A stretch of 64,000 nt of DNA, taken from NCBI GenBank assembly GCA_964540145.1, contig CAZILS010000001.1:19640-83639 (forward strand), in the 5' to 3' direction. The notes below the pieces were generated by a model. It did no database searches, had not been told where the DNA came from, and saw only the letters and a program-made list of their open reading frames with translations. The DNA is from an uncultured archaeon. GTDB taxonomy: Archaea > Iainarchaeota > Iainarchaeia > Iainarchaeales > CAZILS01. The stretch's first letter is position 1. Each line of letters opens with the position of its first letter. Made by a program: the position numbers and the translations under genes. Positions 869 to 63,668 of the stretch are shown piece by piece.

Positions 869-3800
869 ATGGGCCTGGGAGAGAAACTAAGGCAGGCAAT
901 GGACAGGCTAAGGGGAGCCAGTGCCTTAGATAAGGAGACTGTTAAGGCGGTCGTCAAGGATTTGCAAAGGGCGCTGATTGCCGGGGATGTCGATGTTTCC
1001 CTGGTTTTGCAGGCAACCAAAGAGATAGAGAAAGAGGCGTTTGGGGAGCTCCCTAAGGGGATGAACAGGAGGGAGCATGTCCTTAAGGCCACTTATGACC
1101 GGCTTGCGGGGCTGCTGGGCAAGGCAGGGGAGATTCCCGAGAAGCCCTCACGGATACTCTTGGTGGGGCTGTTTGGTTTTGGAAAATGCGTCCATCCCAA
1201 AACCATTATTCCGCTTGCAGACGGCAGAAACCTTCAAGCACAAGAATTGTATGAAACTATTCCTGAAAACGAATTTGTGCTGGAAGACGGAACCGTAAAG
1301 GAACTGGAAAAACCTATAGAAGTATTTTCCTTTGACCCATTTACGCTGAAAATGGTGCGGGGAAAGGCAACCCACATATGGAAACTGAAAAAAGACAGGC
1401 CGCTGTTTAAGGTGTGGCTGGATAATGGGGGAAATCACAACATCACAGTTACTCCCGAGCACCCTTTTTTTGCGATGGAAGACGGAGAAATTAGAAAAGT
1501 CAGGGCCGACCGTATCAGTGCGGGTTGCTTTGTTGCAGCCCCTGGAAAAATACCTGTAAGGAAAAATGACCCCCTTAATAAAGATTTTATGGAGAAATTT
1601 GCAGGAATCGCAGACATCCATGACAACCTACTTTCTGAAAGAATAAAGGGCTTCTTGAAAAATGAATTTGGCACCCTTGGGGAGGCGCACAATGCAATTG
1701 GGAAAGAATATGCATACTGCAACCTGTGCAGTTCCCTAAAAAAAGGGGTTGTTTTTGGTTCAATAATTAACCAGGCTGAAAGGATTGGGCTGCCGGTTTC
1801 ACTGGGGGATGAAGCAACTGTTTCTCTCAGGGGGAATTGTGCCAGAAAAATAAGGGTTCCCCTGAAAATGAGTCCCGGACTTTCCGAGTTCCTGGGATAC
1901 CTGTATGCTGACGGCCATATGAGGAAACGCTATGTGGGCATAACAAACGAGGATCAGAAACTGCTTAAGCGGTGTGCTTTGCTCGGGAAAAACTTGTTTG
2001 GAATAGAAGGGAAAATAAAAAAAGACAAACGAAAAGACCTGTTGTTTACGATTGTTTTCTGTTCCAAAACCCTTGTTAGTTTTTTGAACGTGATTTTTGG
2101 CATACCTATAAACAAAAAAAGCAGGATAATTAGGCTTCCTCCTGCCATCCAGACAAGCCCTGAAAAGTGCAGGAAACGTTTCTTAAGGGCTTTTTTTGAT
2201 TGCGACGGGCACATATCCAAAAACAGCCGTACGATAGAAATCTGTACTGCCAGCAGGCGTTTCTCGGAAGACATGAGAACGTTACTGGCGGGGCTTTCCC
2301 TAACCCCCGGCATCGGCAAAAAAACCATTAATGGAAAACGATATTTCAGGATTCTGATAAAGGCAAGAGATACTGAGTGGTTTGCTGAAGAGGTGGGTTC
2401 GCTCATTGCTTCAAAGAGCAGGAGGCTTGGGAACTGCGGGGCTATGGGGGTTGGGCAGTCCCTTGGGAAACAGGAAATGGTTCCTGTGGGGGAGAAGCTT
2501 AAGGAATGCCGGGAAATACACGGCGCCACAATTGGGGAAATCCAAAAATACGTTTCCGCGTACGGAACTTACGAGAAAGAGGGCCTAATTTCCAGAAGTG
2601 CACTGAGTAAATTTCTGGATGCACTGGCCCACACCAAAAACAAGAACAATGAAATTCTGCGGCTTGTATCCGAAGGAGCAGATTATAAAAATATTCTGGA
2701 GGCGTTGGGAGAAAATAGAGGCTGGCTTAATGCAAACCTCTTTAGGCTGGGGCAGATTGGCCTTGTGGAACATCAGTCCGGGCTTATGCAAATAAGCCAA
2801 AAAGGCAAAGATTTGCTGGAAAAATCATCCTCTTCCCCCGAGGGGCTTGTTAAGCAGCTATCTGCCCTTGTGCAATCTGAAATCCGGTGGATAAAAATAA
2901 AAAAGATTGAGCTTGTTGAAGATACCGATTATGTGTATGATCTAAGCGTTGATGAGTACCATAATTTTGTTGCCAACCAGGTAATTATTCACAACACAAC
3001 CACAACCGCAAAGCTTGCGAACTACTACAAGAAGCGCGGCTTGAAGGTTGGGGTTATAGGCGCGGATGTCATGAGGCCCGCCGCCTATGAGCAGCTTCAG
3101 CAGTTGAGTGAGCAGCTGAAAATCGATTTTTATGGAAACCCAAAGGAGAAGAAGGCGGAGAAAGTTGTCAAGGAAGGGGTTGAGAAGTTAAAGGGCGTTG
3201 ACTTGATTATAGTTGACAGTGCGGGAAGGAGCGCCCTGGATTCGGAGCTTACCGAGGAAATGAAAAACATCCATAAGGAGTTCAGGCCCGAGCACACCTG
3301 GCTCATCCTTGGGGCGGATATGGGGCAGCTTGCGGGGAAGCAGGCACAGGCTTTCCACGATGCTGTCGGGGTCAATGGTTTGGTTATAACAAGGATGGAC
3401 GGGAGTGCGAAGGGAGGGGGCGCCCTTGCAGCATGTGCAAAGACAAAGGCGCCTGTTTATTTCATAGGAACGGGGGAGAAGGCAAACGACCTGGAGGCAT
3501 TCGATTCCCAGAGGTATCTTGGAAGGATAATGGGGTATGGGGACATACAGGGCCTGCTTGAGAAGGCGAAGGAAGCGGAAAGCGGGGAGATAGACATCGA
3601 GGCGATGATGAAGGGCGAATTTAACCTCGATATGTTCTACAAGCAGCTGAAGCAGGCGAGGCAGATTGGGCCTTTGAACAAGATTGCGGAAATGCTCGGG
3701 ATAAGCATGCAGGTTCCGAAAGAACAGCTCGAGCTGGGGGAGGAAAAACTTGATGCGTTCAAGTGCATTATGGATTCTATGACGGGGCAAGAAAAATTAG

Positions 3801-4021
3801 AGCCAGAATTGTTGAACAGCAGCAGGATTTCTAGGATTGCGAAGGGAAGCGGCACTAAGGATGAGGAAGTGAGGGAGCTTATAAAGCATTATAAGCAGAT
3901 GAAAAAGATGTTCAAGAAAATGAAGGATTTAAACCCTGAAAAGATGGCCGGGGGGAAAGGCTTCGATATGTCCTCGTTTGGGAAAAAATTCGGGAAGAAG
4001 AAAAAGTTCAGGATAAGGTAG
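869..4021 (+). CDS. srp54: Signal recognition particle protein SRP54, interrupted by an intein (exteins about 447 aa)
   Basis: N domain, then GLFGFGK | intein | TTTTAKLANYY. Also DSAGR, TRMDGSAKGG and a Met-rich M domain with a basic tail. Confidence 0.9.
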   Translation: MGLGEKLRQAMDRLRGASALDKETVKAVVKDLQRALIAGDVDVSLVLQATKEIEKEAFGELPKGMNRREHVLKATYDRLAGLLGKAGEIPEKPSRILLVGLFGFGKCVHPKTIIPLADGRNLQAQELYETIPENEFVLEDGTVKELEKPIEVFSFDPFTLKMVRGKATHIWKLKKDRPLFKVWLDNGGNHNITVTPEHPFFAMEDGEIRKVRADRISAGCFVAAPGKIPVRKNDPLNKDFMEKFAGIADIHDNLLSERIKGFLKNEFGTLGEAHNAIGKEYAYCNLCSSLKKGVVFGSIINQAERIGLPVSLGDEATVSLRGNCARKIRVPLKMSPGLSEFLGYLYADGHMRKRYVGITNEDQKLLKRCALLGKNLFGIEGKIKKDKRKDLLFTIVFCSKTLVSFLNVIFGIPINKKSRIIRLPPAIQTSPEKCRKRFLRAFFDCDGHISKNSRTIEICTASRRFSEDMRTLLAGLSLTPGIGKKTINGKRYFRILIKARDTEWFAEEVGSLIASKSRRLGNCGAMGVGQSLGKQEMVPVGEKLKECREIHGATIGEIQKYVSAYGTYEKEGLISRSALSKFLDALAHTKNKNNEILRLVSEGADYKNILEALGENRGWLNANLFRLGQIGLVEHQSGLMQISQKGKDLLEKSSSSPEGLVKQLSALVQSEIRWIKIKKIELVEDTDYVYDLSVDEYHNFVANQVIIHNTTTTAKLANYYKKRGLKVGVIGADVMRPAAYEQLQQLSEQLKIDFYGNPKEKKAEKVVKEGVEKLKGVDLIIVDSAGRSALDSELTEEMKNIHKEFRPEHTWLILGADMGQLAGKQAQAFHDAVGVNGLVITRMDGSAKGGGALAACAKTKAPVYFIGTGEKANDLEAFDSQRYLGRIMGYGDIQGLLEKAKEAESGEIDIEAMMKGEFNLDMFYKQLKQARQIGPLNKIAEMLGISMQVPKEQLELGEEKLDAFKCIMDSMTGQEKLEPELLNSSRISRIAKGSGTKDEEVRELIKHYKQMKKMFKKMKDLNPEKMAGGKGFDMSSFGKKFGKKKKFRIR
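1187..2995 (+). mobile_element. Intein with a LAGLIDADG homing endonuclease domain, inserted in the SRP54 Walker A motif
   Basis: Starts with Cys (CVHPKTIIPLADG). Has block B VTPEHPF, LAGLIDADG motifs LGYLYADGHM and LRAFFDCDGHI, and ends VYDLSVDEYHNFVANQVIIHN followed by Thr+1. 1809 nt = 603 codons, in frame. Confidence 0.85.
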
Positions 4022-24238: not shown

Positions 24239-24916
24239 TTAATGGGCTGGAAACCCCTGAAGGAGGCGCTCTATTGCCTGCTTCGGGTCTTGGGAGGTTA
24301 CTATCGCACTCGAGACAAAGACCCCCTCAACCCCGAGCCCTATCGCCTTCTTCACGTCCCCGGTGTTCCTTATACCTGCGCCGGTAACAACGTTGATTTT
24401 CTTGCTTACTTCCGCGATTGCATTGACCGCGCCGGAGATAAGGTCGGGCTTTGCGTCGGAGATTGAGACAGTCCCGCCTATCAGCCCTGGAATTTCAACG
24501 GAGATTATGTCCGGGGAGAGCTCCGCTATTTCCTTTGCGCGGGCGACGCTTTCCGCACAGGCCATAACCTCAAGGCCGGCATCCTTCGCCCGCTCCACGG
24601 AAGCCGCAAGGGCGCGGGCGCCGAGCGGCCTTTCAGGGTGGTTAAGGACCGTGCCTTCGGCGCCTGCCGCCTTAACCCCTTCGGGAAGGGTGTGACCTGC
24701 GTGCTTGCCGTAGGCTATGGGGTCTATGTGCTGCGCATATGTTGGTAAAGAAACCGCTTCTGAAACAGGTTTTATGTCAACTGCCTGAACAACAAGGCAG
24801 ACTGTTGCCCTGTTTTTGGAGGCGGCCTCCTCGGCAAGTTTTGCGAGGGTAATTGCGTTCTCTCCGGTGGCTTCCCGGTAAGTCTTGAAATTTATGAATA
24901 ATGCCGGTGTTTTCAT
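24239..24916 (-). CDS. tpiA: Triosephosphate isomerase (archaeal short form)
   Basis: LFINFKTYREATG, LNHPERP, VTGAGI. ATG 24916 gives 225 aa. The track start at 24946 is a TTG. Confidence 0.8.
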   Translation of the reverse strand: MKTPALFINFKTYREATGENAITLAKLAEEAASKNRATVCLVVQAVDIKPVSEAVSLPTYAQHIDPIAYGKHAGHTLPEGVKAAGAEGTVLNHPERPLGARALAASVERAKDAGLEVMACAESVARAKEIAELSPDIISVEIPGLIGGTVSISDAKPDLISGAVNAIAEVSKKINVVTGAGIRNTGDVKKAIGLGVEGVFVSSAIVTSQDPKQAIERLLQGFPAH

Positions 24917-25028
24917 CCTATCGAAAAGAAGCTGGGGCAAAGCCAATATAAATGTTGGGGGTTTTTCTTGGCATATTCGAAAAACAGAACCCCTTAAAAT
25001 AACAACTTCGCCATATTATTTTTTTACC

Positions 25029-26882
25029 ATGGGCAGGGAATCCGAGCTTATTTTAGAAAACAGCCTTATTACTTCCGGGGCGGACAAGGGATTCGTGGAG
25101 AGGGCTGTCGATTTCGCCAAGGGGCTTTGTGACGAGACAGACCTTACCGGGGAGGGGGTGTTCCCGCACAACCTTGCTGTCGGGAAGATACTTGCGGATA
25201 TGGGGCTGGGCCCCAAAATTATTGCCGCAGGCTTGCTGCACAATGCGATTGATAATTGTGCTGTGCCTGCGCAGATAGAGAAGCAATTTGGGAAGGATGT
25301 TCTTGAGCTTGTCGAGCTTCACCACAAGTTCAGGAAAAGTGTCAGGGGCAGGGAAAGAAAAGCGGGAAAGATGCTGATTGCGATTTCCCAGAACCTTGGC
25401 TTTGTTTTTGTCGAGCTGGCAGATACCAAGGCGAACCTTGAAAGAGCCGGGAAGCTCCCTGCGGAAAGGAGGGCGTGGTTTGTCAAGGCTGCGAAGGAGC
25501 TCTATGCGCCGCTTGCGTACAGATTGGGAATTTACAGGATGAAGGCTGATTTGGAGGATTTGGTTTTCAGGGCGGAAAATCCCGAAAAATACAGGGAAAT
25601 TGAGGCAAAGGTTGAGAACAGCAGGGCGGAAATGGAAAAGCGGCTTGAAAAGCTGGGAGAAATTCTTAGGGGGGCGCTGAGGAAGGAGGGGATTAAAGCA
25701 GAGATGCTGACAAGGGTCAAGCACATCTATGGGATATATGGCAAGATGCTTAGGCGGGGGAAGGCATTCGATGAAATCTATGACCTAAGGGGGATAAGGG
25801 TTATCGCAAAGAGCGTTGATGACTGCTACAAGGTTTTGGGGGTGGCGCACAGCCTTTGGAAACACATTCCCGCGGAATTCGACGACTACATAATGAAGCC
25901 GAAGGAGAATAATTACAGGTCGATACATACCACTGTTATAGGGCCTATGGGAAACCCTTTGGAGATACAAATAAGGACAGGGGAGATGGACCGGGCTGCG
26001 GAGCTTGGGCTTGCCGCCCACTGGAGTTACAAGGGCGGGAAAGCGACAAAGCACGAGAAGAAACTTGAGTGGGCCAGGCAGTTGCTTGAGTGGCAAAGGA
26101 ATTCCGAGGAGGCATTGTCCGAGCTTATCAATGTCGATTTCTTCGACAACGTTATATTTGTGCTTACCCCCAAGGGGGATGTCATAGAGCTTCCGCAGGG
26201 CGCGACCCCGATTGACTTTGCGTATGCAATACATACAAAACTTGGGGAAAAATGCGAGAAGGCAAAGGTGAACAGCAGGCTTGTGAGCCTTAACTATGCG
26301 CTCAAGAACGGGGATTTGGTCGATGTCATAATAAGCCCTTCGCAAAAGCCAAAGAGGGCCTGGCTGACTTTTGTGAAGACGGAGAAGGCCAAGCTGAAGA
26401 TAAGGCAGGCCCTGAACTTGCAGAAGAGTTTTGAGCCCGCCAAAAAGGAGAAAAGGCGGGATGTGCTCACCGCCCCAAAAGGGGCGGGGAAAATAAGGGT
26501 GGGAAAGTGCTGCTCGCCTTTGCCGGGGGACGAGCTTGTGGGGTTCTGGACAACGAAAAGGAAATTGTCGGTGCACAGGAAAGGCTGTGATGAGGTTGGG
26601 AAAATGGCCGAGGGGAGGAAAATTTTTTCGGTTGATTTGGGGGGCGCAGGGGGCGAGGCAACGATAGAGCTCACCGCAGCGGACAGGGCGGGCCTTCTCA
26701 CCGACCTTCTTTCCGCAATGTCCTCGTTCAACGCAAAGGTGGTGGGGGCAACCGCGAAAACCTCGCAGACAAACAAAACCACATGCAGGTTTGATGTCAG
26801 GGTAAGGGACAGGGCGGAGCTTGAGAAGATAACCGAAAGGCTGGGGAAGCTTCCCGGGGTTAAGGGCATCAGAAGGATTTAG
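25029..26882 (+). CDS. Long RelA/SpoT homolog: degenerate HD domain, (p)ppGpp synthetase, TGS, zinc-finger and ACT domains
   Basis: Synthetase motifs RVKHIYGIYGKM, YDLRGIRVI, NNYRSIHTTV, LEIQIRTGEMD, AAHWSYKG. TGS VLTPKGDVIELPQGATPIDFAYAIHT. CCSPLPGD...HRKGC. ACT IELTAADRAGLL. The HD motif reads LLHNAID. Confidence 0.85.
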   Translation: MGRESELILENSLITSGADKGFVERAVDFAKGLCDETDLTGEGVFPHNLAVGKILADMGLGPKIIAAGLLHNAIDNCAVPAQIEKQFGKDVLELVELHHKFRKSVRGRERKAGKMLIAISQNLGFVFVELADTKANLERAGKLPAERRAWFVKAAKELYAPLAYRLGIYRMKADLEDLVFRAENPEKYREIEAKVENSRAEMEKRLEKLGEILRGALRKEGIKAEMLTRVKHIYGIYGKMLRRGKAFDEIYDLRGIRVIAKSVDDCYKVLGVAHSLWKHIPAEFDDYIMKPKENNYRSIHTTVIGPMGNPLEIQIRTGEMDRAAELGLAAHWSYKGGKATKHEKKLEWARQLLEWQRNSEEALSELINVDFFDNVIFVLTPKGDVIELPQGATPIDFAYAIHTKLGEKCEKAKVNSRLVSLNYALKNGDLVDVIISPSQKPKRAWLTFVKTEKAKLKIRQALNLQKSFEPAKKEKRRDVLTAPKGAGKIRVGKCCSPLPGDELVGFWTTKRKLSVHRKGCDEVGKMAEGRKIFSVDLGGAGGEATIELTAADRAGLLTDLLSAMSSFNAKVVGATAKTSQTNKTTCRFDVRVRDRAELEKITERLGKLPGVKGIRRI

Positions 26883-55171: not shown

Positions 55172-55561
55172 GGCTTTCTGTATTTTCTTGATGCACTTTT
55201 CCGGGCTCTTTTTTAACTCGTGTTCCCAAACTCGGATTACCTTCCAACCCCGCTTTTTTAGCTCCCTGTTTACCTTGCGGTCCCTTTCTTTATTTGCGCT
55301 TATTTTTGGTTCCCAAAAGCCCCTATTCGTGGCGGGAATCGTTTTGCATTTGCAACCGTGCCAAAAACACCCGTCCAGGAACAAGACCGCCCTATGTCCG
55401 ACCAGCCGAAAATCCGGGGTGCCGTACAACTTCGGATGGCCCCTGTAGCGAATCCCGTTCTTTCTAAGCAAAGAGGCCAATTTTCGCTCTATTTTGGTTT
55501 TTTTGCCCTTTATTTGGGACATTAGCTCGCTTCGCTTTTCTTTTGTAAAAATATCCGCCAT
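55166..55561 (-). CDS. vsr: Very short patch repair endonuclease
   Basis: FTKEKRSELMSQIKGKKTKIE, GTPDFRLVGHRAVLFLDGCFWHGC, WKVIRVWEHEL. ATG at 55561. Confidence 0.85.
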   Translation of the reverse strand: MADIFTKEKRSELMSQIKGKKTKIERKLASLLRKNGIRYRGHPKLYGTPDFRLVGHRAVLFLDGCFWHGCKCKTIPATNRGFWEPKISANKERDRKVNRELKKRGWKVIRVWEHELKKSPEKCIKKIQKAL

Positions 55562-55607
55562 CGAAAGACATATATTGGCAAAGTTACAAAAAGATAGCGG
55601 GAAACGC
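55562..55607. promoter_or_regulatory. 46-bp divergent control region between vsr and the HNH gene
   Basis: Contains ACATATATTGG. It is the only non-coding DNA between the two start codons. Confidence 0.4.
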
Positions 55608-56252
55608 ATGGCTGCGAAAGATCTTATCCTTGACCTGCTAAAGAAGAATGTTGGAAAGCGGGTGCCGTCGTCCGAAATAAGAAAGAAAGCGAAAATATCG
55701 GATTGGGCCCGGTGCATCAGGACGCTTCGTCAAGAGGGTTGGAAAATCGAGTTGAGTCGGAAGGATGGGGGCGGGTACAAACTCGTTTCTCTGAGCAAAG
55801 GGCGAGGCGTAACGCGAACGCAAATCGACGCAAAAACGGCTTATTTAATCAGGTCGAGAGACAACTTCGTTTGCCAAGCCTGCGGTAAAAACGTAAGGGG
55901 CAAGGAAAATCACATCGACCATATTGTCCCGGTGGATTTTGGGGGCACCAACGAACTTGATAATTTGCAATTGCTGTGCAAGGCTTGCAACTTGGGAAAG
56001 AAGAATTTATACAAGGAACAAGATAAGGCACTTATGAAAAAGATCTTTGCTTCAACTTCTTCCAAAGAACGGCTTAGGCTATTTTTTGAAGGAAATCCGA
56101 ATAAGCTCTTATCCCCGTCCGTTTTGCAAGGGGTTGCTCACGTTAGGGACTGGGAGCGTGCTTTGAGATACGTACGTTCCGAAAACGTGATGAATATTAA
56201 ATATGCCCCCAAGAGCAAAAATTCGGAAGAAGGATATATCTATACTCCTTGA
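55608..56252 (+). CDS. HNH endonuclease with an N-terminal winged-helix-like domain (candidate restriction enzyme)
   Basis: CQACGKNVRGKENHIDHIVPVDFGGTNELDNLQLLCKACNLGKKN. Confidence 0.75.
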   Translation: MAAKDLILDLLKKNVGKRVPSSEIRKKAKISDWARCIRTLRQEGWKIELSRKDGGGYKLVSLSKGRGVTRTQIDAKTAYLIRSRDNFVCQACGKNVRGKENHIDHIVPVDFGGTNELDNLQLLCKACNLGKKNLYKEQDKALMKKIFASTSSKERLRLFFEGNPNKLLSPSVLQGVAHVRDWERALRYVRSENVMNIKYAPKSKNSEEGYIYTP

Positions 56253-57223
56253 TTTTTGTCCAAAACATTCTTAATGCTCCTTGCAATCGTTTCCACTACG
56301 GGCACCGGAACCGAGTTTGCAAACTGCTTATAGGCCTGGGTTTTGGAAACGGGAATCTTGAAATTTTCGCCGAACCCCTGTAAACGGGCGCACTCTCGTT
56401 CCGTCAAATATCTTATTCCCTCGTCGTTGAATCTTTTCTTATCGGGATCTTTTATTTTGGCAAAGGCCTGCGGGTCTCTTACGAGATTTCTCTCCCGGCC
56501 CATTCCTCCGCAAACCAATGCATTGGCTATCTTGTTCTTTTCATGAACCAAATACCCGAATCCGTTTCCCTTACTCTCGTGCCTTTTTTTATGTTGTTTC
56601 ATCCCCGCCAGCCTTTTTTTGGTGATGAAGTACTTTAGGGGGACTTCCTTTTCCAGAATGTCTTTCAAGGTTACCCCATTATCTTTTTTTTCCGGTATTT
56701 GATATCCGAACCAATCCAGATCTTTTCTGAATCCGACAATAAATATTCTTTCTCGATTTTGCGGCAGTTTAAAGTTTTTCGCATTCAGAACCTTGTGGAA
56801 TACGACGTAATCCATTTCCTCCAAAGAGGCCTTTATTATCCCGAATGTTTTGCCTTTGTCGTGTCTTTCCAGATTTTTTACATTTTCCAATAAGAACGCT
56901 TTCGGCTTTTTTTCTTTAATTATCCTCGCCACGTCGAAAAATAGTGTTCCCCTAGTGTCTTCGAAACCTTTTTTTTGGCCCGCTATGCTGAATGCCTGAC
57001 AAGGGAAACCCCCGACCAAAACATCGAAATTCGGGAGGGTTTTTGGATTAACTTGAGTTATATCTCCGGTAGGGTCTTCTCCGAAGTTTTCCTTATATGT
57101 TACCGCACAAAAATGGTCTATTTCGTTTGAGTATACCGCTTGAAACGCACGGGTGTTTTCGAAGCCTTTTCTAAGGCCCCCGATTCCCGCAAAAAGATCG
57201 ATTATTTTGAATTTATCGGACAT
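56240..57223 (-). CDS. dcm: DNA (cytosine-5)-methyltransferase
   Basis: Motif I IDLFAGIGG, motif IV GGFPCQAFS, motif VI ENVKNL, motif VIII QNRERIFIVG, motif X FANSVPVPV. 327 aa. Confidence 0.9.
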   Translation of the reverse strand: MSDKFKIIDLFAGIGGLRKGFENTRAFQAVYSNEIDHFCAVTYKENFGEDPTGDITQVNPKTLPNFDVLVGGFPCQAFSIAGQKKGFEDTRGTLFFDVARIIKEKKPKAFLLENVKNLERHDKGKTFGIIKASLEEMDYVVFHKVLNAKNFKLPQNRERIFIVGFRKDLDWFGYQIPEKKDNGVTLKDILEKEVPLKYFITKKRLAGMKQHKKRHESKGNGFGYLVHEKNKIANALVCGGMGRERNLVRDPQAFAKIKDPDKKRFNDEGIRYLTERECARLQGFGENFKIPVSKTQAYKQFANSVPVPVVETIARSIKNVLDKNQGV

Positions 57224-57324
57224 TCAATTTCCCCGGATAAATGTTGTTCTAACTCCCTTTAAATCCTTAGCCAGCAGGGTAGAGATTTCCGGTGTGGGTT
57301 ATGTATAAAACCACGCCCACTTTT

Positions 57325-57555
57325 TTATTTTTCCTTCTTCTTCGCATGGAATTCGGCATTGGCCCTCTCAATTACCGCGACCAAATCCTCAAGGTCTTCT
57401 TTGGTCGGGTTTTCGGGGACATAAAGGGCATGCACATTATCCTTCCGCTTGACCGCCTTCGCTTTCCCTGCCTGAACTGTTGTTGGCATAGTATCTATGT
57501 GTGTGAAGGTTGCTTTAACCCTTCCCCCACAACCAATAAATACCGCCTTGCGCAT
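57325..57555 (-). CDS. Hypothetical small protein (76 aa)
   Basis: Its composition is more protein-like than the overlapping plus-strand ORF. No motif recognised. Confidence 0.35.
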   Translation of the reverse strand: MRKAVFIGCGGRVKATFTHIDTMPTTVQAGKAKAVKRKDNVHALYVPENPTKEDLEDLVAVIERANAEFHAKKKEK

Positions 57556-57564
57556 ATCTCTCAC

Positions 57565-57900
57565 ATGGTTTCGCTGAAAACGCTTTCAATTCCCGTTGCG
57601 GCAATAGGCCTCCTCCACGCCGCCTACCGCCGCTCTCCCCTGGTCCATAAGGTAATTTATGCCCCCGAGGAGAAGAAGGAGATAATCACTTTGCCGCTCC
57701 TCGACTTCTCGCTTTCGGAGTCGCAGCAGCGCATGCTGGAGGCCATAAAGGAGGATTCGAGCATCGCCGGCCTTGCGGAAAAGGTCGGGCAGTCCAGGGC
57801 GATGCTTTACCGCCACATAAAGGAGCTCAAGGCAAAGGGCCTCCTTGAGGATAGCGACGGCTTTAAGGCCACTGATGCGGGAAAAATAGCGGTGATGTGA
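57565..57900 (+). CDS. Winged-helix transcriptional regulator (start uncertain)
   Basis: SESQQRMLEAIKEDSSIAGLAEKVGQSRAMLYRHIKELKAKGLL. Its stop overlaps the next ATG (ATGTGATGG). Confidence 0.5.
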   Translation: MVSLKTLSIPVAAIGLLHAAYRRSPLVHKVIYAPEEKKEIITLPLLDFSLSESQQRMLEAIKEDSSIAGLAEKVGQSRAMLYRHIKELKAKGLLEDSDGFKATDAGKIAVM

Positions 57901-59207
57901 TGGGCGGCAGCCTTAACCTTTTTTGGAGGGAGCCTATACTGCCAAAACCGGGCCGCATGGAGGAAAAAGAAAACAACGTAACCCATGCTTTCCTCGCCAC
58001 CCTCGCAAACGACAGGGCAGTCACCGCCGCCCTTTTGCAGGAAATACTTTCAAAATCTAGCTTGCGCAATGCCGCAAGTGCACTGGGCCGCTCCCCTGAG
58101 TTCGATTTTCAGGTAAGCGAATCCAGAAAGGCAGAGTTACGAACAAAACAGGTGCAGATAATACTTTTCATAGACTCTGAATATGACGAGTCTCTAGTTG
58201 CGGATACTGCGTTTCATCCTATCCCTGAAGCGGGTCCCCAAAATCGCGATTCGGGCACAGGCCGCGACAGACCCGACGGCCTCATCCTCGGAAAGAACGC
58301 CGCAGTGCTCATCGAGTCCAAAATACGGAAATGCAACCCGCAAGCAAGGGAAGAGCAGATTGGCCGCTATAACCGGGTTTTTTTCGGCGGCGCGGCCAGC
58401 AAGGTATATTTAACTTGGCAGCAACTATATAGGTGGCTTTCCCGCCGGAACAGCAAAGAAACAATAACAAAACATTTCCTAAAGTATTTGGAGGCGATAA
58501 ACTTGAGCGGATTCAGGGGAATACCCTTTTTTGATAAAAAAAACGAATGGAATGATGCTGAGGCAGAAGCGGTTGCAAAGGAACTCAGCGCGGAGCTAAA
58601 AAAGTGGTTTGACACGGAAAACGTGGGATTGTCTATGAACATCCGCCCAAAAGGGAAAAAAGCGGGCCTTTGGGATTATTTTTATTACCCTGCGCTTGCG
58701 GAAAAGGCAAAGAAGTCAGGCCCCCAATCCATACCCCACATGGCAGTTTATATGAATTCAAACCATTTTGGGATATCAGTAACATTCAACAAAAAAGCGG
58801 TCATAAAAAAAATATTGGGCTCGGAAAAGCGGTATTCCGAATTTTTTGAAAAGGTAAAGGGGCTTTCTAAAAACCCCGATGCCTATCTTGCCCTAAACCA
58901 TTACAAAATGCTCGCCCATAAACGCGAGTACAAACACAACCGCCAGGGCCCAAAATACGAGGATTTCAAGCTCGAATACCAGCTCTCACGGCTCAAAAAC
59001 AACCCTGCCGAGGAAGATTTTTTTAAGAGCTTGATGAAATTATCCCTAAGAATCCCCCTGAAAGAAATAGCTCTATTAGAAAAGTTTTATTACGAGGATT
59101 CATCCGATAACAAGGTTTTTTGCGATGGAGAATCCGCCTTGAAAAAGATAAAGTCGGTAATAACCGGCTTGAAACCGAATTATGAATTCATTGCAGGGCT
59201 AATTTAA
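57900..59207 (+). CDS. PD-(D/E)xK nuclease-fold protein with an uncharacterised 260-aa C-terminal region
   Basis: EEKENNVTHAF...DRPDGLILGKNAAVLIESKIRK (D...E-x-K at nt 58266-58322). Confidence 0.55.
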   Translation: MGGSLNLFWREPILPKPGRMEEKENNVTHAFLATLANDRAVTAALLQEILSKSSLRNAASALGRSPEFDFQVSESRKAELRTKQVQIILFIDSEYDESLVADTAFHPIPEAGPQNRDSGTGRDRPDGLILGKNAAVLIESKIRKCNPQAREEQIGRYNRVFFGGAASKVYLTWQQLYRWLSRRNSKETITKHFLKYLEAINLSGFRGIPFFDKKNEWNDAEAEAVAKELSAELKKWFDTENVGLSMNIRPKGKKAGLWDYFYYPALAEKAKKSGPQSIPHMAVYMNSNHFGISVTFNKKAVIKKILGSEKRYSEFFEKVKGLSKNPDAYLALNHYKMLAHKREYKHNRQGPKYEDFKLEYQLSRLKNNPAEEDFFKSLMKLSLRIPLKEIALLEKFYYEDSSDNKVFCDGESALKKIKSVITGLKPNYEFIAGLI

Positions 59208-59283: not shown

Positions 59284-59308
59284 AACCTCTCCCGCTTCGT
59301 GCAGAAAA
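59284..59308 (+). repeat. Left copy of a 25-bp direct repeat AACCTCTCCCGCTTCGTGCAGAAAA
   Basis: 24 of 25 positions are identical to 63644-63668. Confidence 0.85.
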
Positions 59309-59342: not shown

Positions 59343-61781
59343 CTATTCTCCAATAATCCAATTGGTCTTGCCGCAGTTACAAGAAAGAGTTTTCCCCCCT
59401 TTTTCCAGAGGCGCCTTGCACTCATTACAATTAAATAGCGCAAATAAATCTTTAAATGCAGTTACAACTGGTGTGAAATCAGCTTTACTGAAGTTAGCCC
59501 ATTTGTTATAATGGACATTTTCATTAATCGCCCATTGCTCTACTTGGGATCGGGCAATTACTTTTCCCGCGTATTTTTCTATCTCACTTAATTCATCCAA
59601 CAAACTTTTGTTATTATATTTGCTTGCATTTTCCTTGGCACGTTTTAAATAATCTTTGTATGTGCCGATTGCAGCAGCAGTCAATTCTCCTAAATCCCAC
59701 CTAAAGCGCTCGTTATAGGGAACTTTGGCAGCAAGCAACGAACAAACCTCACTAAAAAAACATTCTGCATTCTTTCTTAGTTCAAAAGATGCCCCCGCAA
59801 TATTGTTCTCACCCAGTAGGTGATTAATTCGATCCCACAAATCTTCATCGTTTTTAAAAGTAGGTCCTGATTCAACATGCCAATTTAGAAACTGTATGCT
59901 GTTTGACTTACTGACAATCCCCTCACTCTTGAGCTGCTTTGCCCAGATTGTGTCATGAGTTGTTATTACAAACTGAGTATCTGGAAAAAACTTTTTTAGT
60001 AATTGGCACACTTTTCGCCTATGGTCGTTATCAATAGACATAACAACATCATCTAAAATAACCACCTTTATGTTTTCCCGAGATAAATATTTATTCAACG
60101 CTAGAAATAAACAAATCCCCATGCTGTCTTGGTGGCCTTCACTATGCAATGCGTGCGGTGGAACCATCGCTCTACCGTAGAAATCTACTTCAAAATTCAA
60201 CGCGGCCCCTGTGTGCGAAAACATCGCTGAGAAATTATCTTCATCTTCAGAATGAAGTGTCTTATAGAATATCTCAAAATCTTGTTTAATTTTTTCATAC
60301 AGCTCTCTTAGGACTTTGTCACGGGATTGTTTAAATAATTCCAGTGCTAACTTGGCCCTGCCGTTCAGAAGTTTTTTTCTTTTTTTAATATTTGCCTTTT
60401 CTTCATATTGGCTCCACAAAATCTCTATCTTTGAAAGGGTGTTGCGCGTATTCTCTTTTTTGGATACTCTATCCCCGATTTCTCTAACCTTATTTTCTAA
60501 GGGGCTTAGCAAATTCTTCTCTACTGCGCCCTTGGCTAAAGTTTCTTCTAAACTCACTTCCGGAAATTTATTGTTTTCAATCAATTTTTCAGGGTCTTGC
60601 AAAGTTGACATCCACAAAGAAAGACCTACAATGGTTTCGTTCACAACCGCTTCAGAATCAGGAGTTATGCGGAGTTGCTTTTTTGCTTTACTAAGTTTAG
60701 TTAAGTTGTCTCTTAGTAAATCTATTTTTTCAAGAGAAATCTTAAATAATGCCTTAAGTTGGTCATGTTTTTCTTTATTAGATTCTATTCTTTTTTTTCT
60801 ACGTTCCAAATGTTCTATAAACTTGCCTTCGGTCCAGCTTTGTCCGCATAATGGACATTGGGAAGAGTCTCCTGTTAGTTGAATGCCGGCCTCCAATAAC
60901 CTAATTTGATTAAGATAGTTTTTAAGCTCCGCATCCTTGCGGATGTTTTCAATAATTGATTTTATTTTATCAATCTTTTCAAAAACACCTTCTTTTTCAA
61001 GCAGCGCATTTTTAGCACCTAATATAAACTTTCTTATTTGTGTAATCGTGAAATGGTCTTGCTCGTTGTGATATTCTGCACCCCCCGCACCTTTTATTTT
61101 TTCTATTGTCAATTCATCAATTTTTATAGCGCCCAAATCTTTTTTTAGCAAATTTATTTTTGCGAGCAACTCTTCTTTAGAAAAAGAATTAATCGAAAAC
61201 AGATTGCATATCTCGTTCTCAGATTTTTTTAATTCTCGTTCTGCATTTCCAAGTTCCTGCTCAGAGCGGTTGTTGACTGTGCCAAGAGTCTTACGGAGGT
61301 CTTCAATGACTGATAAATCCAAAAGTGCTTGTATTTGTTCGCCTCTTTTTCCAGCCTCCGCAGTTATGTAACTAAGAATTTCTCTACGCGACAAAATGTA
61401 TTGCCCAATCCGTGATTTTTCAAAATATGATTCAACTAAGGCCTGTTTGCCGATAGGATCGACCTTGATCTTTCGAGGATCACTAATACTACGGCATATT
61501 GTTAATTTTTCTCCACCAAGTTCAACTTTTGCAGATATTGTCGCATTCTCCAAATTCTTTTGGGAGTCAACATGACAGCCGTGCTCCCCCAATTTTAGGC
61601 ACCTTGTTCCCTCCCCCGTAAGCCGCGAAATCTTCCCGGAAACCAGAAAATCAATAGCATCAACCACTGCACTTTTTCCTGTACCATTAGGTCCAAAAAT
61701 CACAAGGTTCTCGCCTTTTGGCGTGAATGAAGCGTCTTTTATTCCCCGGATATTTCTGATCTGGAGTTCATTAATCTTCAC
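59343..61781 (-). CDS. Rad50/SbcC-like ABC ATPase with a coiled-coil zinc hook and an extra C-terminal domain (RloC/PrrC-like architecture)
   Basis: Walker A GPNGTGKS, CPLCG hook (nt 60846-60857) inside a roughly 370-aa coiled coil, signature LHSEGHQDS, Walker B VVILDDVVMSID, H-loop FVITTHD. The C-terminal domain has LRKNAE, NENVHYN and CNEC...CNCG. GTG start. Confidence 0.75.
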   Translation of the reverse strand: MKINELQIRNIRGIKDASFTPKGENLVIFGPNGTGKSAVVDAIDFLVSGKISRLTGEGTRCLKLGEHGCHVDSQKNLENATISAKVELGGEKLTICRSISDPRKIKVDPIGKQALVESYFEKSRIGQYILSRREILSYITAEAGKRGEQIQALLDLSVIEDLRKTLGTVNNRSEQELGNAERELKKSENEICNLFSINSFSKEELLAKINLLKKDLGAIKIDELTIEKIKGAGGAEYHNEQDHFTITQIRKFILGAKNALLEKEGVFEKIDKIKSIIENIRKDAELKNYLNQIRLLEAGIQLTGDSSQCPLCGQSWTEGKFIEHLERRKKRIESNKEKHDQLKALFKISLEKIDLLRDNLTKLSKAKKQLRITPDSEAVVNETIVGLSLWMSTLQDPEKLIENNKFPEVSLEETLAKGAVEKNLLSPLENKVREIGDRVSKKENTRNTLSKIEILWSQYEEKANIKKRKKLLNGRAKLALELFKQSRDKVLRELYEKIKQDFEIFYKTLHSEDEDNFSAMFSHTGAALNFEVDFYGRAMVPPHALHSEGHQDSMGICLFLALNKYLSRENIKVVILDDVVMSIDNDHRRKVCQLLKKFFPDTQFVITTHDTIWAKQLKSEGIVSKSNSIQFLNWHVESGPTFKNDEDLWDRINHLLGENNIAGASFELRKNAECFFSEVCSLLAAKVPYNERFRWDLGELTAAAIGTYKDYLKRAKENASKYNNKSLLDELSEIEKYAGKVIARSQVEQWAINENVHYNKWANFSKADFTPVVTAFKDLFALFNCNECKAPLEKGGKTLSCNCGKTNWIIGE

Positions 61782-61941
61782 GAGGTGATGCCCCCAGTAA
61801 TTTTTCGACCGTATTATCCGTTGCGTTCCCTTTCCTAATTAGTTCGATTAGCTCTTTTGATATCCCGGAGAATAACTCATTGCCTTCAAGCGATTTTTCA
61901 AATTCATAAAAAACACTTTCCGGCACGGTTTTCGCTGTCAA
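61771..61941 (-). CDS. Small acidic protein (56 aa if started at the TTG)
   Basis: TTG lies 5 nt after GAGGGTG, begins 11 nt past the HD gene stop, and the ORF overlaps the ATPase start by 11 nt. The longer track ORF overlaps the HD gene. Confidence 0.35.
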   Translation of the reverse strand: MTAKTVPESVFYEFEKSLEGNELFSGISKELIELIRKGNATDNTVEKLLGASPRED

Positions 61942-61951
61942 AAAAACACCC

Positions 61952-62938
61952 TCACTTAAGATAAATATTCGTCCCAAAATCCTTGCTGTAAACGAAATTA
62001 TCCTCGGTTTCGGCGTTTTCCTTGTAGTCAATCATTTGCATCGCCAATGCATCCAGCTCGTCGGCCTTTGCAATAATAAACGCCTCCGGGAAGCTCGGCA
62101 GTTTCGGGCAGCCATACTCGAGGCAACCGTGGTGGCTTATTAGGATGTGGAGCAGCTTGTCCTTAAGTATTTCCGGGATTTCCCCGCCATCCAGTTTATG
62201 GGAGAGCATTTGGACCCCAAGCGTTATGTGCCCCAGCAGATTCCCCCTATCGGTGACCTTTATCAGGGAGGTTGTTTCAAACTCCTCGATTTTTCCGATG
62301 TCGTGGAGTACCGCTCCCGCCACAAGGAGATCCCTGTCCAACTTATGATATTTCGCGAGGTCTGTGCAGATATTTACAACGCTGAGCGTGTGCTCGAGCA
62401 GCCCTGAAACCCAGCCGTGGTGTTTGTACATCGCGCCGGGGCTGCTCTTGAACCGCCCTACAAAATCGTCATCATCAAAAAAGGAGCCAAGCACCTTTTT
62501 GAGGCCTGCATTTTCAACGGAATCAATGTGCTTCTTCAGCTCAGCAAACATCTCTTCGGCATCCTTCCCGCTCGCCCTCACAAAATCGCTTAATTCATAT
62601 TCTTCCGGCTTCAGCAGCTTTATCCCGCCCTCGTTTACGCTAAGCTCGAGCTTCCCGTTGTATTCGTTTACCGCGCCCTCGACATAAACCACGGAGTCGT
62701 TTTTTATGAGGTTATAGAGCTCCTCGACTTTCGCCTTATCCTCCCCGCCCCAGTACTTGAGCATCATGTCCCCGAGCGAATCCTGCACTTTAAGGCTGAA
62801 ATAATAAGTTCCGCGCTTAGTCTCCTGCACCGGCTTCTTGAACCTGACCGCAAACAGGTCCTTTACCTGCTCATTGGCCTTCAGCTCGTTCAGGGTCTTT
62901 TGTTTCTTGTACAAGTTTTCACCATTAATAATGGGCAC
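61952..62938 (-). CDS. OB-fold plus HD-domain phosphohydrolase/nuclease (YhaM-like)
   Basis: N-terminal OB fold (YFSLKVQDSLGDMMLKYWG...VYVEGAVNEYNGKLEL). HD domain KHHGWVSGLLEHT, LHDIGK, LGHI, ISHHG, KADELDA. GTG start with AGGTG upstream. Confidence 0.8.
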   Translation of the reverse strand: MPIINGENLYKKQKTLNELKANEQVKDLFAVRFKKPVQETKRGTYYFSLKVQDSLGDMMLKYWGGEDKAKVEELYNLIKNDSVVYVEGAVNEYNGKLELSVNEGGIKLLKPEEYELSDFVRASGKDAEEMFAELKKHIDSVENAGLKKVLGSFFDDDDFVGRFKSSPGAMYKHHGWVSGLLEHTLSVVNICTDLAKYHKLDRDLLVAGAVLHDIGKIEEFETTSLIKVTDRGNLLGHITLGVQMLSHKLDGGEIPEILKDKLLHILISHHGCLEYGCPKLPSFPEAFIIAKADELDALAMQMIDYKENAETEDNFVYSKDFGTNIYLK

Positions 62939-63095: not shown

Positions 63096-63356
63096 ATGGG
63101 CAAGACAGTCACCATGAACATAAAGGTAAGCGATTACACAAGCAGGGTTTTGGGGGTTGTGAAGGAGAAATACGGCCTCAGGGACAAGGGCCAGGCGCTG
63201 GACAGGTTCGCGGACATGCACGGCGAGGAATTTGTCGAGCGTGAGGTGAAGGACTCATACCTCAAAAAACTGCTGAAAATAGAGGAAGAACACCATAAAA
63301 AGCACCCCGACCGAAGGATGTCCCTGAAGGAACTGGACAAACTGTGCGGGAAGTGA
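63096..63356 (+). CDS. Antitoxin-like protein (paralog of 53367..53624)
   Basis: YTSRVLGVVKEKYGLRDKGQALDRFADMHGEEFVE...HPDRRMSLKELDKLCGK. Confidence 0.65.
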   Translation: MGKTVTMNIKVSDYTSRVLGVVKEKYGLRDKGQALDRFADMHGEEFVEREVKDSYLKKLLKIEEEHHKKHPDRRMSLKELDKLCGK

Positions 63357-63360
63357 GCTT

Positions 63361-63645
63361 TTGCCCCTTGAGTTTGATTTTTCGGATAAGCTCAGGAAAA
63401 TAATGGATGCCCTCCGCAGGAAAGACCCGAAAAAAGCAGAGATAATCCGCCGCAAGGCAAGGGAGATAGTGAGTTGCGACGAATTGTCAATAGCGCGCTA
63501 CAAAAATCTCCGCCATGGCCTGAAAGGCAGGAAACGTGTGCACATAGGCAAGAGTTTTGTCCTCACATTCAAATACGACCAAGCCCGGAATTTCATCCTT
63601 TTTTTGGATTTTGACCACCACGACAATATCTATAAGAAGAAGTAA
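63361..63645 (+). CDS. RelE/ParE-family toxin (intact copy)
   Basis: YKNLRHGLKGRKRVHIGKSFVLTFKYDQARNFILFLDFDHHDNIYKKK. TTG start 5 nt after the antitoxin stop. Confidence 0.7.
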   Translation: MPLEFDFSDKLRKIMDALRRKDPKKAEIIRRKAREIVSCDELSIARYKNLRHGLKGRKRVHIGKSFVLTFKYDQARNFILFLDFDHHDNIYKKK

Positions 63646-63668
63646 CCTCTCCCGCTCCGTGCAGAAAA
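63644..63668 (+). repeat. Right copy of the 25-bp direct repeat AACCTCTCCCGCTCCGTGCAGAAAA
   Basis: 24 of 25 positions are identical to 59284-59308. It overlaps the relE stop codon. Confidence 0.85.

Follow-up and report, generated by a model that had tools for sequence, protein, structure and literature searches.

Three features define RloC proteins: the motifs of an ATP-binding cassette (ABC) protein, a coiled coil like that of Rad50 that bears a CxxC hook, and an Arg-x3-Glu-x36-52-His triad near the C terminus (PMC2610378). Residues R692, E696 and H737 have been found to be essential for their function (PMC2610378, PMC3025547). For PrrC, an anticodon nuclease of Escherichia coli, mutagenesis has identified R320, N321, E324, R349, N352 and H356 as essential (PMC3025547). 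Proteins of the HEPN superfamily are four-helix bundles whose last helix begins with an R-x4-6-H motif, and they are known to form ABC-HEPN fusions (PMC3710099). In Lamassu systems, LmuC precedes LmuB in the same way that the SbcD C-terminal domain precedes SbcC (PMC12663957). Other related designs include the PbeABCD systems, in which a small, fast-evolving disordered protein has been proposed to act as a negative regulator (PMC10853773), and the auxiliary modules of bacteriophage exclusion (BREX) loci (PMC12839542). Here we examine a locus of this general type in a 64,000-nucleotide stretch of DNA (the window) from an uncultured archaeon of the Iainarchaeota (GenBank assembly GCA_964540145.1, contig CAZILS010000001.1, positions 19,640 to 83,639), where a small acidic protein is encoded directly ahead of a zinc-hook ABC ATPase with an additional C-terminal domain.

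An original prediction made from the letters of the window alone described this locus as a three-gene operon composed of an OB-fold/HD nuclease, a small acidic protein, and a Rad50/RloC-like ATPase. The three minus-strand open reading frames (ORFs), every motif quoted for them, and an 11-nucleotide gene overlap are all present where they had been reported (Table 1). However, the functional unit is a horizontally mobile two-gene cassette made of the small acidic protein gene and the ATPase gene, not a three-gene operon. This cassette is probably a defense module, and it is found in at least 383 archaeal and bacterial species.

The gene for the HD protein is a native bystander of the host, and a foreign cassette was inserted directly behind it. 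This conclusion is drawn because HD gene contexts lack the ATPase, because ATPase loci lack the HD gene, and because GC content at third codon positions (GC3) steps by 0.29 from the HD gene to the cassette across the 10 nucleotides that separate the HD stop codon from the TTG start codon of the small ORF. By tblastn, no HD homolog was detected at E<=1e-3 in 88 fetched ATPase loci (85 non-redundant; within about 5 kb), and the HD family (PF01966) is not among the families common to flanking ORFs in a Pfam census of these loci. Conversely, an HD ortholog with 76% identity is flanked by hypothetical genes and one with 66% identity by housekeeping genes, in both cases with no adjacent ATPase. A third ortholog (57% identity; locus L014, 1-13646) also lacks the ATPase and lies between a BREX cluster accompanied by a UvrD/PD-(D/E)xK helicase and a Cas12a-Cas4-Cas1-Cas2 locus. 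No flanking genes are common to the window and the HD-ortholog loci by which synteny could define the insertion site. HD orthologs seem to border variable or defense regions in more than one genome.

The HD protein itself matches the Pfam families HD (PF01966; 57 bits) and tRNA_anti-codon OB (PF01336; 31.6 bits), both above the Pfam cutoffs. It also aligns with the NCBIfam model for YhaM (NF010007) over residues 14-306 at 1e-46, with 159.5 bits against an equivalog cutoff of 460. By these matches the protein appears to be YhaM-like without being an equivalog, and it is perhaps best regarded as an archaeal homolog of the YhaM-type 3'-5' exoribonuclease. The family of OB+HD proteins of about 320 amino acids to which it belongs is large (3645 homologs at E<=1e-10), and several members are labeled '3'-5' exoribonuclease' by JGI.

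We weighed the proposal that the hook ATPase works with the OB-HD protein as its nuclease, as a Mre11-Rad50 analog in which the small protein would be an adaptor. The three genes are co-directional and tightly packed, with a 10-nucleotide spacer followed by an 11-nucleotide overlap; HD domains can be nucleases, and this one gives weak matches to Cas3-HD. All of this is outweighed by the lack of the gene in the 85 non-redundant ATPase loci, by the three orthologs with other neighbors, by the membership of the protein in a large YhaM-like family of single genes, and by the difference in GC3 (0.657 versus 0.347-0.368), such that a three-gene system is extremely improbable. Membership of the HD protein in the system was rejected on the same grounds. 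The idea that an OB-HD nuclease stands in place of Mre11 thus has to be abandoned: the co-occurrence check that had been suggested for it reveals no conserved adjacency, and the reported pairing is an accident of insertion. For annotation purposes, the HD gene should stay out of the system.

GC and GC3 values are 0.378 and 0.347 for the ATPase gene and 0.404 and 0.368 for the small ORF, versus 0.488 and 0.483 for the window as a whole. For the HD gene they are 0.498 and 0.657, and its GC3 resembles that of its other neighbors. The claim that the operon is more AT-rich than the core genes therefore holds for the ATPase and small-protein genes and fails for the HD gene. The core genes of the window are archaeal and include those for an A-type ATP synthase, replication protein A, a class-I lysyl-tRNA synthetase, and an intein-containing SRP54. 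The cassette is compositionally foreign in this setting and is horizontally mobile.

The small acidic protein belongs to a family of 55-70 amino acids encoded directly upstream of the ATPase of about 815 amino acids. Hidden Markov models (HMMs) were each trained on half of the ORFs from related loci and tested on the held-out half. They recover the small ORF in 38 of 40 held-out loci in one direction and in 37 of 41 in the other (75 of 81 overall), only at positions that abut the ATPase start, and they produce zero matches elsewhere among approximately 13,800 six-frame ORFs. The small ORF in the window is matched by the two half-set models at E=7e-10 and 1e-7. In almost every locus the short ORF ends at or just within the ATPase start, with true overlap in 62 of 81 loci, most commonly in a 4-nucleotide ATGA-type form; in the window, the last 11 nucleotides of the small ORF overlap the ATPase start region. 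Both the small ORF and its overlap, as originally noted, are thus kept in homologous loci. Because the small-ORF frame ends at or inside the ATPase start, the gene arrangement indicates that the two genes are translationally coupled. PGAP/RefSeq independently annotates a 'hypothetical protein' of about 50-70 amino acids overlapping the ATPase in all nine plasmid loci that carry the small ORF.

The family is acidic (median pI 4.9; net negative in 64 of 81) and follows the pattern K-[ST]-[VL]-x3-I-x-D-x5-L-x5-F-x7-L-x2-L...L-K with an acidic tail. Pfam searches found no relative, PADLOC searches with 79 members found none either, and a PDB profile search likewise returned none. Three loci are exceptions in that no small ORF was detected directly at the ATPase start. 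In one of these (L068) it is present 58 nucleotides from the estimated ATPase start; in another (L020) a 498-amino-acid ORF ends 21 nucleotides before the estimated start; the third is L027. Two short stretches near the start of the cassette in the window are also worth describing. The first, AATATTTAT, is located at 61961-61969 on the minus strand, in the 3' end of the HD gene and about 20-28 nucleotides upstream of the TTG codon, and the second, GTGAGGGTG, sits between the HD stop codon and that TTG codon. Judged by sequence, they could be a candidate archaeal TATA-like element and a ribosome-binding site that give the cassette its own expression signals.

Table 1. Positions of the two-gene cassette, its motifs and domains, and the adjoining HD gene in the window.
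Feature	Position	Strand	Remarks
OB+HD gene	61952-62938	-	328 amino acids; KHHGW, LHDIGK and ISHHG motifs; adjoins the cassette, not part of the module
Small acidic partner protein	61771-61941	-	56 amino acids; TTG at 61941; pI 4.7; net charge -4
Zinc-hook ABC ATPase with fused C-terminal domain	59343-61781 (stop codon included)	-	812 amino acids; GTG start
ATPase head, N-terminal lobe (residues 1-150)	61332-61781	-	Contains Walker A GPNGTGKS
Walker A GPNGTGKS	61671-61694	-	ATPase gene
Antiparallel coiled-coil insert (residues 157-509)	60255-61313	-	AlphaFold2 secondary structure
CPLCG zinc hook (residues 309-313)	60843-60857	-	Loop between coiled-coil arms
ATPase head, C-terminal lobe (residues 518-620)	59922-60230	-	Signature, Walker B/D-loop, H-loop
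Signature LHSEGHQDS	60123-60149	-	ATPase C-terminal lobe
Walker B/D-loop VVILDDVVMSID	60030-60065	-	ATPase C-terminal lobe
H-loop ITTHD	59952-59966	-	ATPase C-terminal lobe
Family-specific C-terminal domain (residues 628-812)	59346-59900	-	Putative effector; AlphaFold2 domain model
R669-x3-E673	59763-59777 (LRKNAE 59763-59780)	-	First long helix of C-terminal domain
N753-x3-H757(-Y758) loop, NENVHY	59508-59525 (NENVHYN 59505-59525)	-	C-terminal domain
Terminal Cys4 zinc ribbon C785, C788, C801, C803 (CNEC...CNCG)	59370-59429	-	C-terminal domain

The ATPase is a Rad50/SbcC/LmuB/RloC-type (CxxC-hook) ABC ATPase with a short coiled coil of about 350 amino acids and an apical CPxC hook. It matches the Pfam families SMC_N, AAA_23 and AAA_21, and its closest PDB relatives by sequence profile are Rad50 heads (2.5e-10). 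Among 84 homologs, the Walker A, signature, Walker B/D-loop and H-loop motifs are all present and invariant, including Walker A residues G30, N32, G33, G35, K36 and S37. In the hook, C309 and P310 likewise show no variation, and conservation of C312 is at least 90%. An AlphaFold2 model of the whole protein, built from the 84-sequence alignment (mean predicted local distance difference test score, pLDDT, of 81.5), proceeds from the first head lobe (1-150) through an ascending arm (157-303), the CPLCG loop (304-320) and a descending arm (321-509) to the second head lobe (518-620) and the C-terminal domain (628-812). The coiled-coil insert and hook are thus placed between two head lobes as had been described, and motifs, Pfam matches and the model agree on a Rad50/SbcC-type zinc-hook ATPase with an extra conserved C-terminal domain. 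The closest folds found by Foldseek are those of Rad50, SMC heads and LmuB (7zr1, 1e-12; 9hqx_B, 2.4e-9; also LmuB chain 9hqu_A).

The original prediction also pointed to likenesses with RloC and with Lamassu. The AAA_13 model, which we take to represent the RloC/PrrC family, gives no match to the window ATPase at E<=0.1. Among relatives of the ATPase it scores 28-34 bits (cutoff, 36), and none of these alignments extends beyond model position 579 of 713; the ATPase therefore does not follow the RloC/PrrC profile from end to end. The best PADLOC model is a short LmuB (PDLC03859; 1.3e-31, 108.5 bits), which aligns residues 1-618 with model positions 3-593 of 611. Both likenesses are thus real leads, whereas membership in the RloC family is not established.

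The LmuB match raises the possibility that the cassette is a compact Lamassu, in which the ATPase is a short LmuB, the small protein is a mini LmuC derived from the SbcD C-terminal domain, and the LmuA effector has been fused to the LmuB C terminus. DNA ends or replication intermediates would be the signal for such a system, and cell killing would be the task of the fused domain. The nearly complete alignment with the PADLOC model and the Foldseek matches to LmuB chains 9hqx_B and 9hqu_A agree with this scheme. Furthermore, the order of small protein gene and ATPase gene equals that of LmuC and LmuB and of the SbcD C-terminal domain and SbcC, and loss or remodeling of components has been reported for short variants of Lamassu (PMC12663957). 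However, no LmuA or LmuC model matches the C-terminal domain, the small protein, the HD protein, or other neighbors, and LmuC models match none of 79 small proteins even though the gene occupies the LmuC position upstream of the ATPase. The small protein, at about 60 amino acids, is roughly one-third the size of LmuC. Moreover, the C-terminal domain has no structural match to LmuA chains in the PDB, and Lamassu effectors are separate tetramerizing proteins, whereas the domain here is fused. We consider a compact Lamassu unlikely.

The C-terminal domain is specific to this family. Its confident AlphaFold2 model (pLDDT of 84.7) has a beta-hairpin, four long helices packed as a bundle, and a Cys4 ribbon made of three short strands. 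This domain matches no Pfam family at E<=10 and no PADLOC family at E<=10 other than PDC-M07B at 0.032, has no PDB relative by sequence profile, and finds nothing better than E=0.47 by Foldseek in the PDB or BFVD. A profile of the domain yields 852 matches among 1.84 billion representatives (representative clusters), and in the best 150 of these 852 it is always located at the C terminus of proteins of about 815 amino acids or their fragments.

Among 230 full-length members, whose C-terminal domains share 31-54% identity, R669 and H757 are conserved in all 230, E673 in 229, N753 in 228, and the four ribbon cysteines in 228-230. These R-x3-E and N-x3-H pairs and the four cysteines are the invariant polar residues. 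In the model, the N753-H757 loop falls between helices 3 and 4 of the bundle, in a region of low pLDDT, and the histidine loop would thereby precede the last helix, in a position that may be called HEPN-like (PMC3710099). The likeness of this putative site to the essential residues of PrrC is specific; the R/E/N/H set provides a motif-level lead for a ribonuclease (RNase) active site and is not proof of homology.

Some variants depart from this plan. A 657-amino-acid relative in Halomontanus (L117, 3822-5968) keeps the small ORF and is without the C-terminal domain. In Hymenobacter (L118, 3992-9784), a 797-amino-acid relative ends in another kind of C-terminal region, and no small ORF is annotated with it; an integrase gene precedes this ATPase variant, and two large hypothetical genes follow it. 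The existence of variants without this C-terminal region or with another one hints at modular evolution of the output end.

Relatives of the ATPase are widely but thinly spread. A set of 5.8 billion proteins contains 279 full-length homologs with 37-48% identity, nearly all of which are 810-830 amino acids long and cover 100% of the query. A scan of one genome per species revealed 383 stretches that encode relatives among 185,579 species genomes, from more than 20 archaeal and bacterial phyla, with a patchy distribution across both domains and 31-48% identity between phyla. The 80 archaeal and bacterial loci that were fetched come, on the archaeal side, from Bathyarchaeia, Methanobacteriaceae (including Methanobacterium ferruginis NBRC 105197), Methanoculleus nereidis, Methanophagales, Halobacteriota, Thermoplasmatota, and Promethearchaeota. 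Bacterial sources are Planctomycetota, Omnitrophota, Patescibacteria, Chloroflexota, Actinomycetota, Nitrospirota, Bacteroidota, Cyanobacteria, Acidobacteriota, Clostridia, and others. By tblastn, 21 plasmid records, some conjugative, carry relatives at 80% or greater query coverage; the plasmid matches as a whole comprise family members along with variants that lack the C-terminal domain or are otherwise altered, and no recognizable RloC is among them. Annotation sources offer no family name beyond 'AAA family ATPase' or 'RecF/SbcC-like', and neither the C-terminal domain nor the small protein is represented by a model in NCBIfam, Pfam or PADLOC.

Neighboring genes in other genomes include those for integrases, resolvases, transposases, HigB/PIN toxins and DNA methylases. 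On plasmid pHTIA of Halorhabdus tiamatea (L119, 1024-9667), the cassette separates pglX from pglZ in an annotated BREX-5 system, and a helicase-related gene comes next. In Halobacterium noricense it adjoins DUF499/DUF1156 genes. A Nitrospirota genome has it with two N6/N4 methylases on one side and an NTP-transferase/ResIII pair on the other, and in Rhizobium etli an N-6 methylase and a patatin gene are close by. Other flanking ORFs match models for MTase_III (type III methylase), Hma, Mokosh, SoFic and PD-T4-6.

No third gene accompanies the cassette. Clustering by BLAST found no flanking family in more than 5 of the 85 loci, and those cases reflect lineage synteny; in a Pfam/PADLOC census of the 150 nearest long flanking ORFs, no family occurs more than four times (ResIII/DEAD, 4; N6_N4_Mtase, 3). 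Candidate clusters for a conserved third gene were rejected since they consisted only of antisense ORFs within the ATPase gene and lineage-specific neighbors. In the window, a 188-amino-acid ORF of this antisense kind (60316-60882, plus strand) is almost certainly no gene, and its equivalents recur in related loci because the ATPase itself is conserved.

These distributions bear on two further explanations. One is that the ATPase is a non-defense Rad50/SbcC paralog for DNA repair or for plasmid or chromosome maintenance, with a C-terminal bundle and ribbon that bind DNA and with the small protein as an accessory subunit. Rad50 is indeed the closest solved relative, PGAP assigns the Gene Ontology term 'double-strand break repair' (an automatic annotation), many flanks are unrelated to defense, and the cassette is frequent on large plasmids and rare in viruses. 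The patchy cross-domain distribution, the extent of divergence between phyla, and the foreign composition in the window speak against such a role, as do the insertion within a BREX operon and an invariant R/E/N/H set that is more typical of an active site. In addition, no Mre11- or SbcD-like phosphoesterase is encoded nearby, and no nuclease partner is conserved in the 85 related loci. On balance, this explanation seems rather improbable.

The other is that the cassette is a selfish, toxin-antitoxin-like addiction element, in which the ATPase-nuclease is the toxin and the small acidic protein a labile antitoxin, that stabilizes plasmids or islands and has no specific anti-phage role. The tightly overlapping genes with the small acidic protein first, the locations on plasmids and beside integrases or transposases, and the match of the ATPase to Pfam AAA_21 (the 'AbiEii toxin'-type ATPase) would all fit. 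However, a hook ATPase of 815 amino acids is far more elaborate than a toxin needs, and two loci (L020 and L027) are without the small ORF. We regard this explanation as very unlikely in its pure form, although toxin-antitoxin and abortive-infection roles are not mutually exclusive.

Instead, we favor, at roughly even confidence, the view that the cassette may be a conflict or defense module resembling RloC and PrrC, in which a sensor and effector are combined and a small protein acts as regulator. In such a module, the ATPase would dimerize through its heads and zinc hook, and the dimer would monitor DNA for ends, damage, or the state of a co-resident restriction-modification (R-M) or BREX system. 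A nucleotide- and DNA-dependent rearrangement would then license the C-terminal domain, which would most likely be a metal-independent RNase with an Arg/Glu/Asn/His site like that of the PrrC/RloC anticodon nuclease. Cleavage by this RNase would shut down translation and thereby cause abortive infection. The co-translated small acidic protein might be a stoichiometric regulator, and this is pure inference. Perhaps it inhibits the effector, like an antitoxin, and is removed when a trigger arrives or senses that trigger itself, or perhaps it is an adaptor bound at the base of the coiled coil, in the position of LmuC or of the SbcD C-terminal domain.

Several findings weigh against this proposal. 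Neither sequence nor structure searches connect the C-terminal domain with a nuclease of any kind, and the AAA_13 and PADLOC PrrC models align only to the ATPase part (for PrrC, the signature/Walker B region). HEPN structures do appear in the Foldseek list, but not significantly (1o3u, probability 0.35; 2q00, probability 0.14). The bundle expected for the HEPN motif is present, but the sequence there reads W750-x2-N753-x3-H757, with no arginine 4-6 residues before the histidine; the position of the essential R349 of PrrC is occupied by the invariant Trp750. Although the residue types of the RloC triad match, their spacing differs, with 83 residues between Glu and His rather than 36-52. The conserved residues and zinc ribbon could serve nucleic-acid binding instead of catalysis. 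Defense context is seen in only a minority of loci, with many flanks composed of ordinary genes, and among 2.9 million viral contigs just 2 encode a full-length relative.

A more far-reaching suggestion, which we offer only tentatively and do not favor on present evidence, is that the cassette is an undescribed cross-domain defense system. It would unite a hook ATPase with a new class of C-terminal nuclease and a mini-protein of about 60 amino acids that holds this activity in check, and it would act alone or as a back-up effector for R-M or BREX systems. The nuclease domain would then be convergent with the PrrC/RloC anticodon nuclease or extremely diverged from it. The papers cited here on RloC, ABC-HEPN fusions, CxC-ABC/Pbe, Lamassu and BREX auxiliary modules are without this combination, and an earlier description is possible.

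The surroundings of the cassette in the window include three gene pairs. An HNH endonuclease with an N-terminal winged helix-turn-helix (wHTH) domain (55494-56252, plus strand) and a C5 cytosine DNA methylase (56240-57223, minus strand) are encoded convergently with 3' ends that overlap by 13 nucleotides, and they are likely a type II R-M pair. They are followed by a wHTH gene (57292-57900, plus strand), which overlaps by 4 nucleotides a 436-amino-acid ORF (57897-59207, plus strand) that is convergent with the ATPase gene. The latter ORF has no Pfam match and contains a PD-(D/E)xK-like stretch, PDGLILGKNAAVLIESKIR; a relative of the wHTH protein with 30% identity lies beside the BREX genes of locus L014. 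These two genes may form another uncharacterized defense pair. On the other side of the HD gene, ORFs of 86 amino acids (63096-63356, plus strand) and 94 amino acids (63361-63645, plus strand), 4 nucleotides apart, resemble a toxin-antitoxin pair in size and arrangement and have no Pfam match at E<=0.01. Thus, of the R-M and toxin-antitoxin neighborhood that had been proposed, the endonuclease and methylase are real, whereas the pair at 63096-63645 finds no Pfam match that would identify it.

A 25-nucleotide direct repeat is also present (59284-59308 and 63644-63668; one mismatch, or about 32 nucleotides with one gap), where none is expected by chance. Its left copy lies 35 nucleotides past the ATPase stop codon, and the two copies enclose the ATPase gene, the small ORF, the HD gene and the toxin-antitoxin-like pair. 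The repeats said to bracket the operon are therefore genuine, but they also take in the HD gene and the adjacent pair and do not delimit the AT-rich part. The repeat was rejected as an island boundary in view of its location off the compositional break and the lack of a recombinase inside it. Read along the minus strand, the repeat opens with a run of T residues 35 nucleotides after the ATPase stop codon, and might act as a terminator.

Two genes farther away deserve brief mention. The 1050-amino-acid SRP54 gene (869-4021, plus strand) is interrupted by an intein, because its match to SRP54 is partial (about residues 709-1017 only) and its middle matches intein-containing proteins. In addition, a RelA/SpoT-family protein (24885-26882, plus strand; 534 bits against an NCBIfam cutoff of 499) is encoded within an otherwise archaeal gene set.

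If the proposed defense function is correct, the cassette would add a member still lacking a name to the SMC/Rad50-like immune sensors, a growing class that includes RloC, Lamassu, Wadjet and PARIS-type ABC systems. Its unusual traits would be an effector domain that profile and fold libraries do not see, yet that bears the PrrC pattern of catalytic residues, and an obligatory, translationally coupled mini-protein. The cassette is common in Archaea (methanogens, haloarchaea, Bathyarchaeia, Asgard), where few defense systems beyond CRISPR and R-M have been examined. Because it is found in cultivable strains and on plasmids, it is directly testable; examples are Methanobacterium ferruginis NBRC 105197, Methanoculleus nereidis, Halorhabdus tiamatea pHTIA, Halobacterium noricense, Phaeobacter inhibens, and Rhizobium etli. 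For genome annotation, PADLOC-type LmuB matches without LmuA can belong to this family.

Among the described systems, RloC is similar in many respects. Like the ATPase described here, it is a single polypeptide of about 800 amino acids in which a coiled coil, tipped by a CxxC hook, divides the ABC motifs, and it has an extra C-terminal domain right after the H-loop. Both proteins have an invariant Arg-x3-Glu and a distal His, with the arginine at about residue 670-690. Also shared are the GTG start, low-expression features, and occasional embedding in restriction loci. However, a valine rather than a serine precedes the histidine here, a Cys4 ribbon is added at the terminus, and RloC is without the obligatory upstream small protein. 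Whereas RloC is reported to be almost purely bacterial (PMC2610378), the present family is common in Archaea. AAA_13 matches for this family are below threshold and limited to the ATPase part and, judged by this model and by the published RloC residues, membership in the RloC family does not appear to be established.

PrrC is likewise an ABC nucleoside triphosphatase with an extra C-terminal domain, which is an RNase in PrrC and putatively one here. The spacings of R320-x3-E324 and N352-x3-H356 in PrrC are the same as those of R669-x3-E673 and N753-x3-H757. In contrast, PrrC has no coiled coil or hook, and its essential R349 and its H295 are without evident counterparts in the present domain, where Trp750 replaces R349. 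PrrC resides in a restriction (hsd) locus, for which the cassette between pglX and pglZ in the Halorhabdus BREX-5 system provides a natural parallel.

The CxC-ABC ATPase of PbeABCD (PMC10853773) similarly has a coiled coil with an apical zinc hook and a small protein alongside. Its hook is CxC, unlike the CxxC (C-P-L-C) found here, and the fused C-terminal domain is a feature of the present family. The PbeABCD partners (DndE and an HKD-SF2 helicase) do not emerge as a recurrent neighbor family in the flank censuses.

Mre11-Rad50 and SbcCD share the zinc hook and antiparallel coiled coil and provide the closest solved head fold. Here, however, the coiled coil is much shorter, an extra C-terminal domain is present, and the distribution is patchy and mobile. 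Finally, Lamassu has an ATPase and coiled coil that correspond nearly end to end through the short LmuB model and also through the LmuB structures, a small gene immediately before the SMC-like gene, and a CxxC-SMC lineage derived from SbcC. The cassette differs from Lamassu in that it has no LmuA gene and no homology to LmuC, its partner protein has only about 60 amino acids, and its additional domain is fused to the ATPase.

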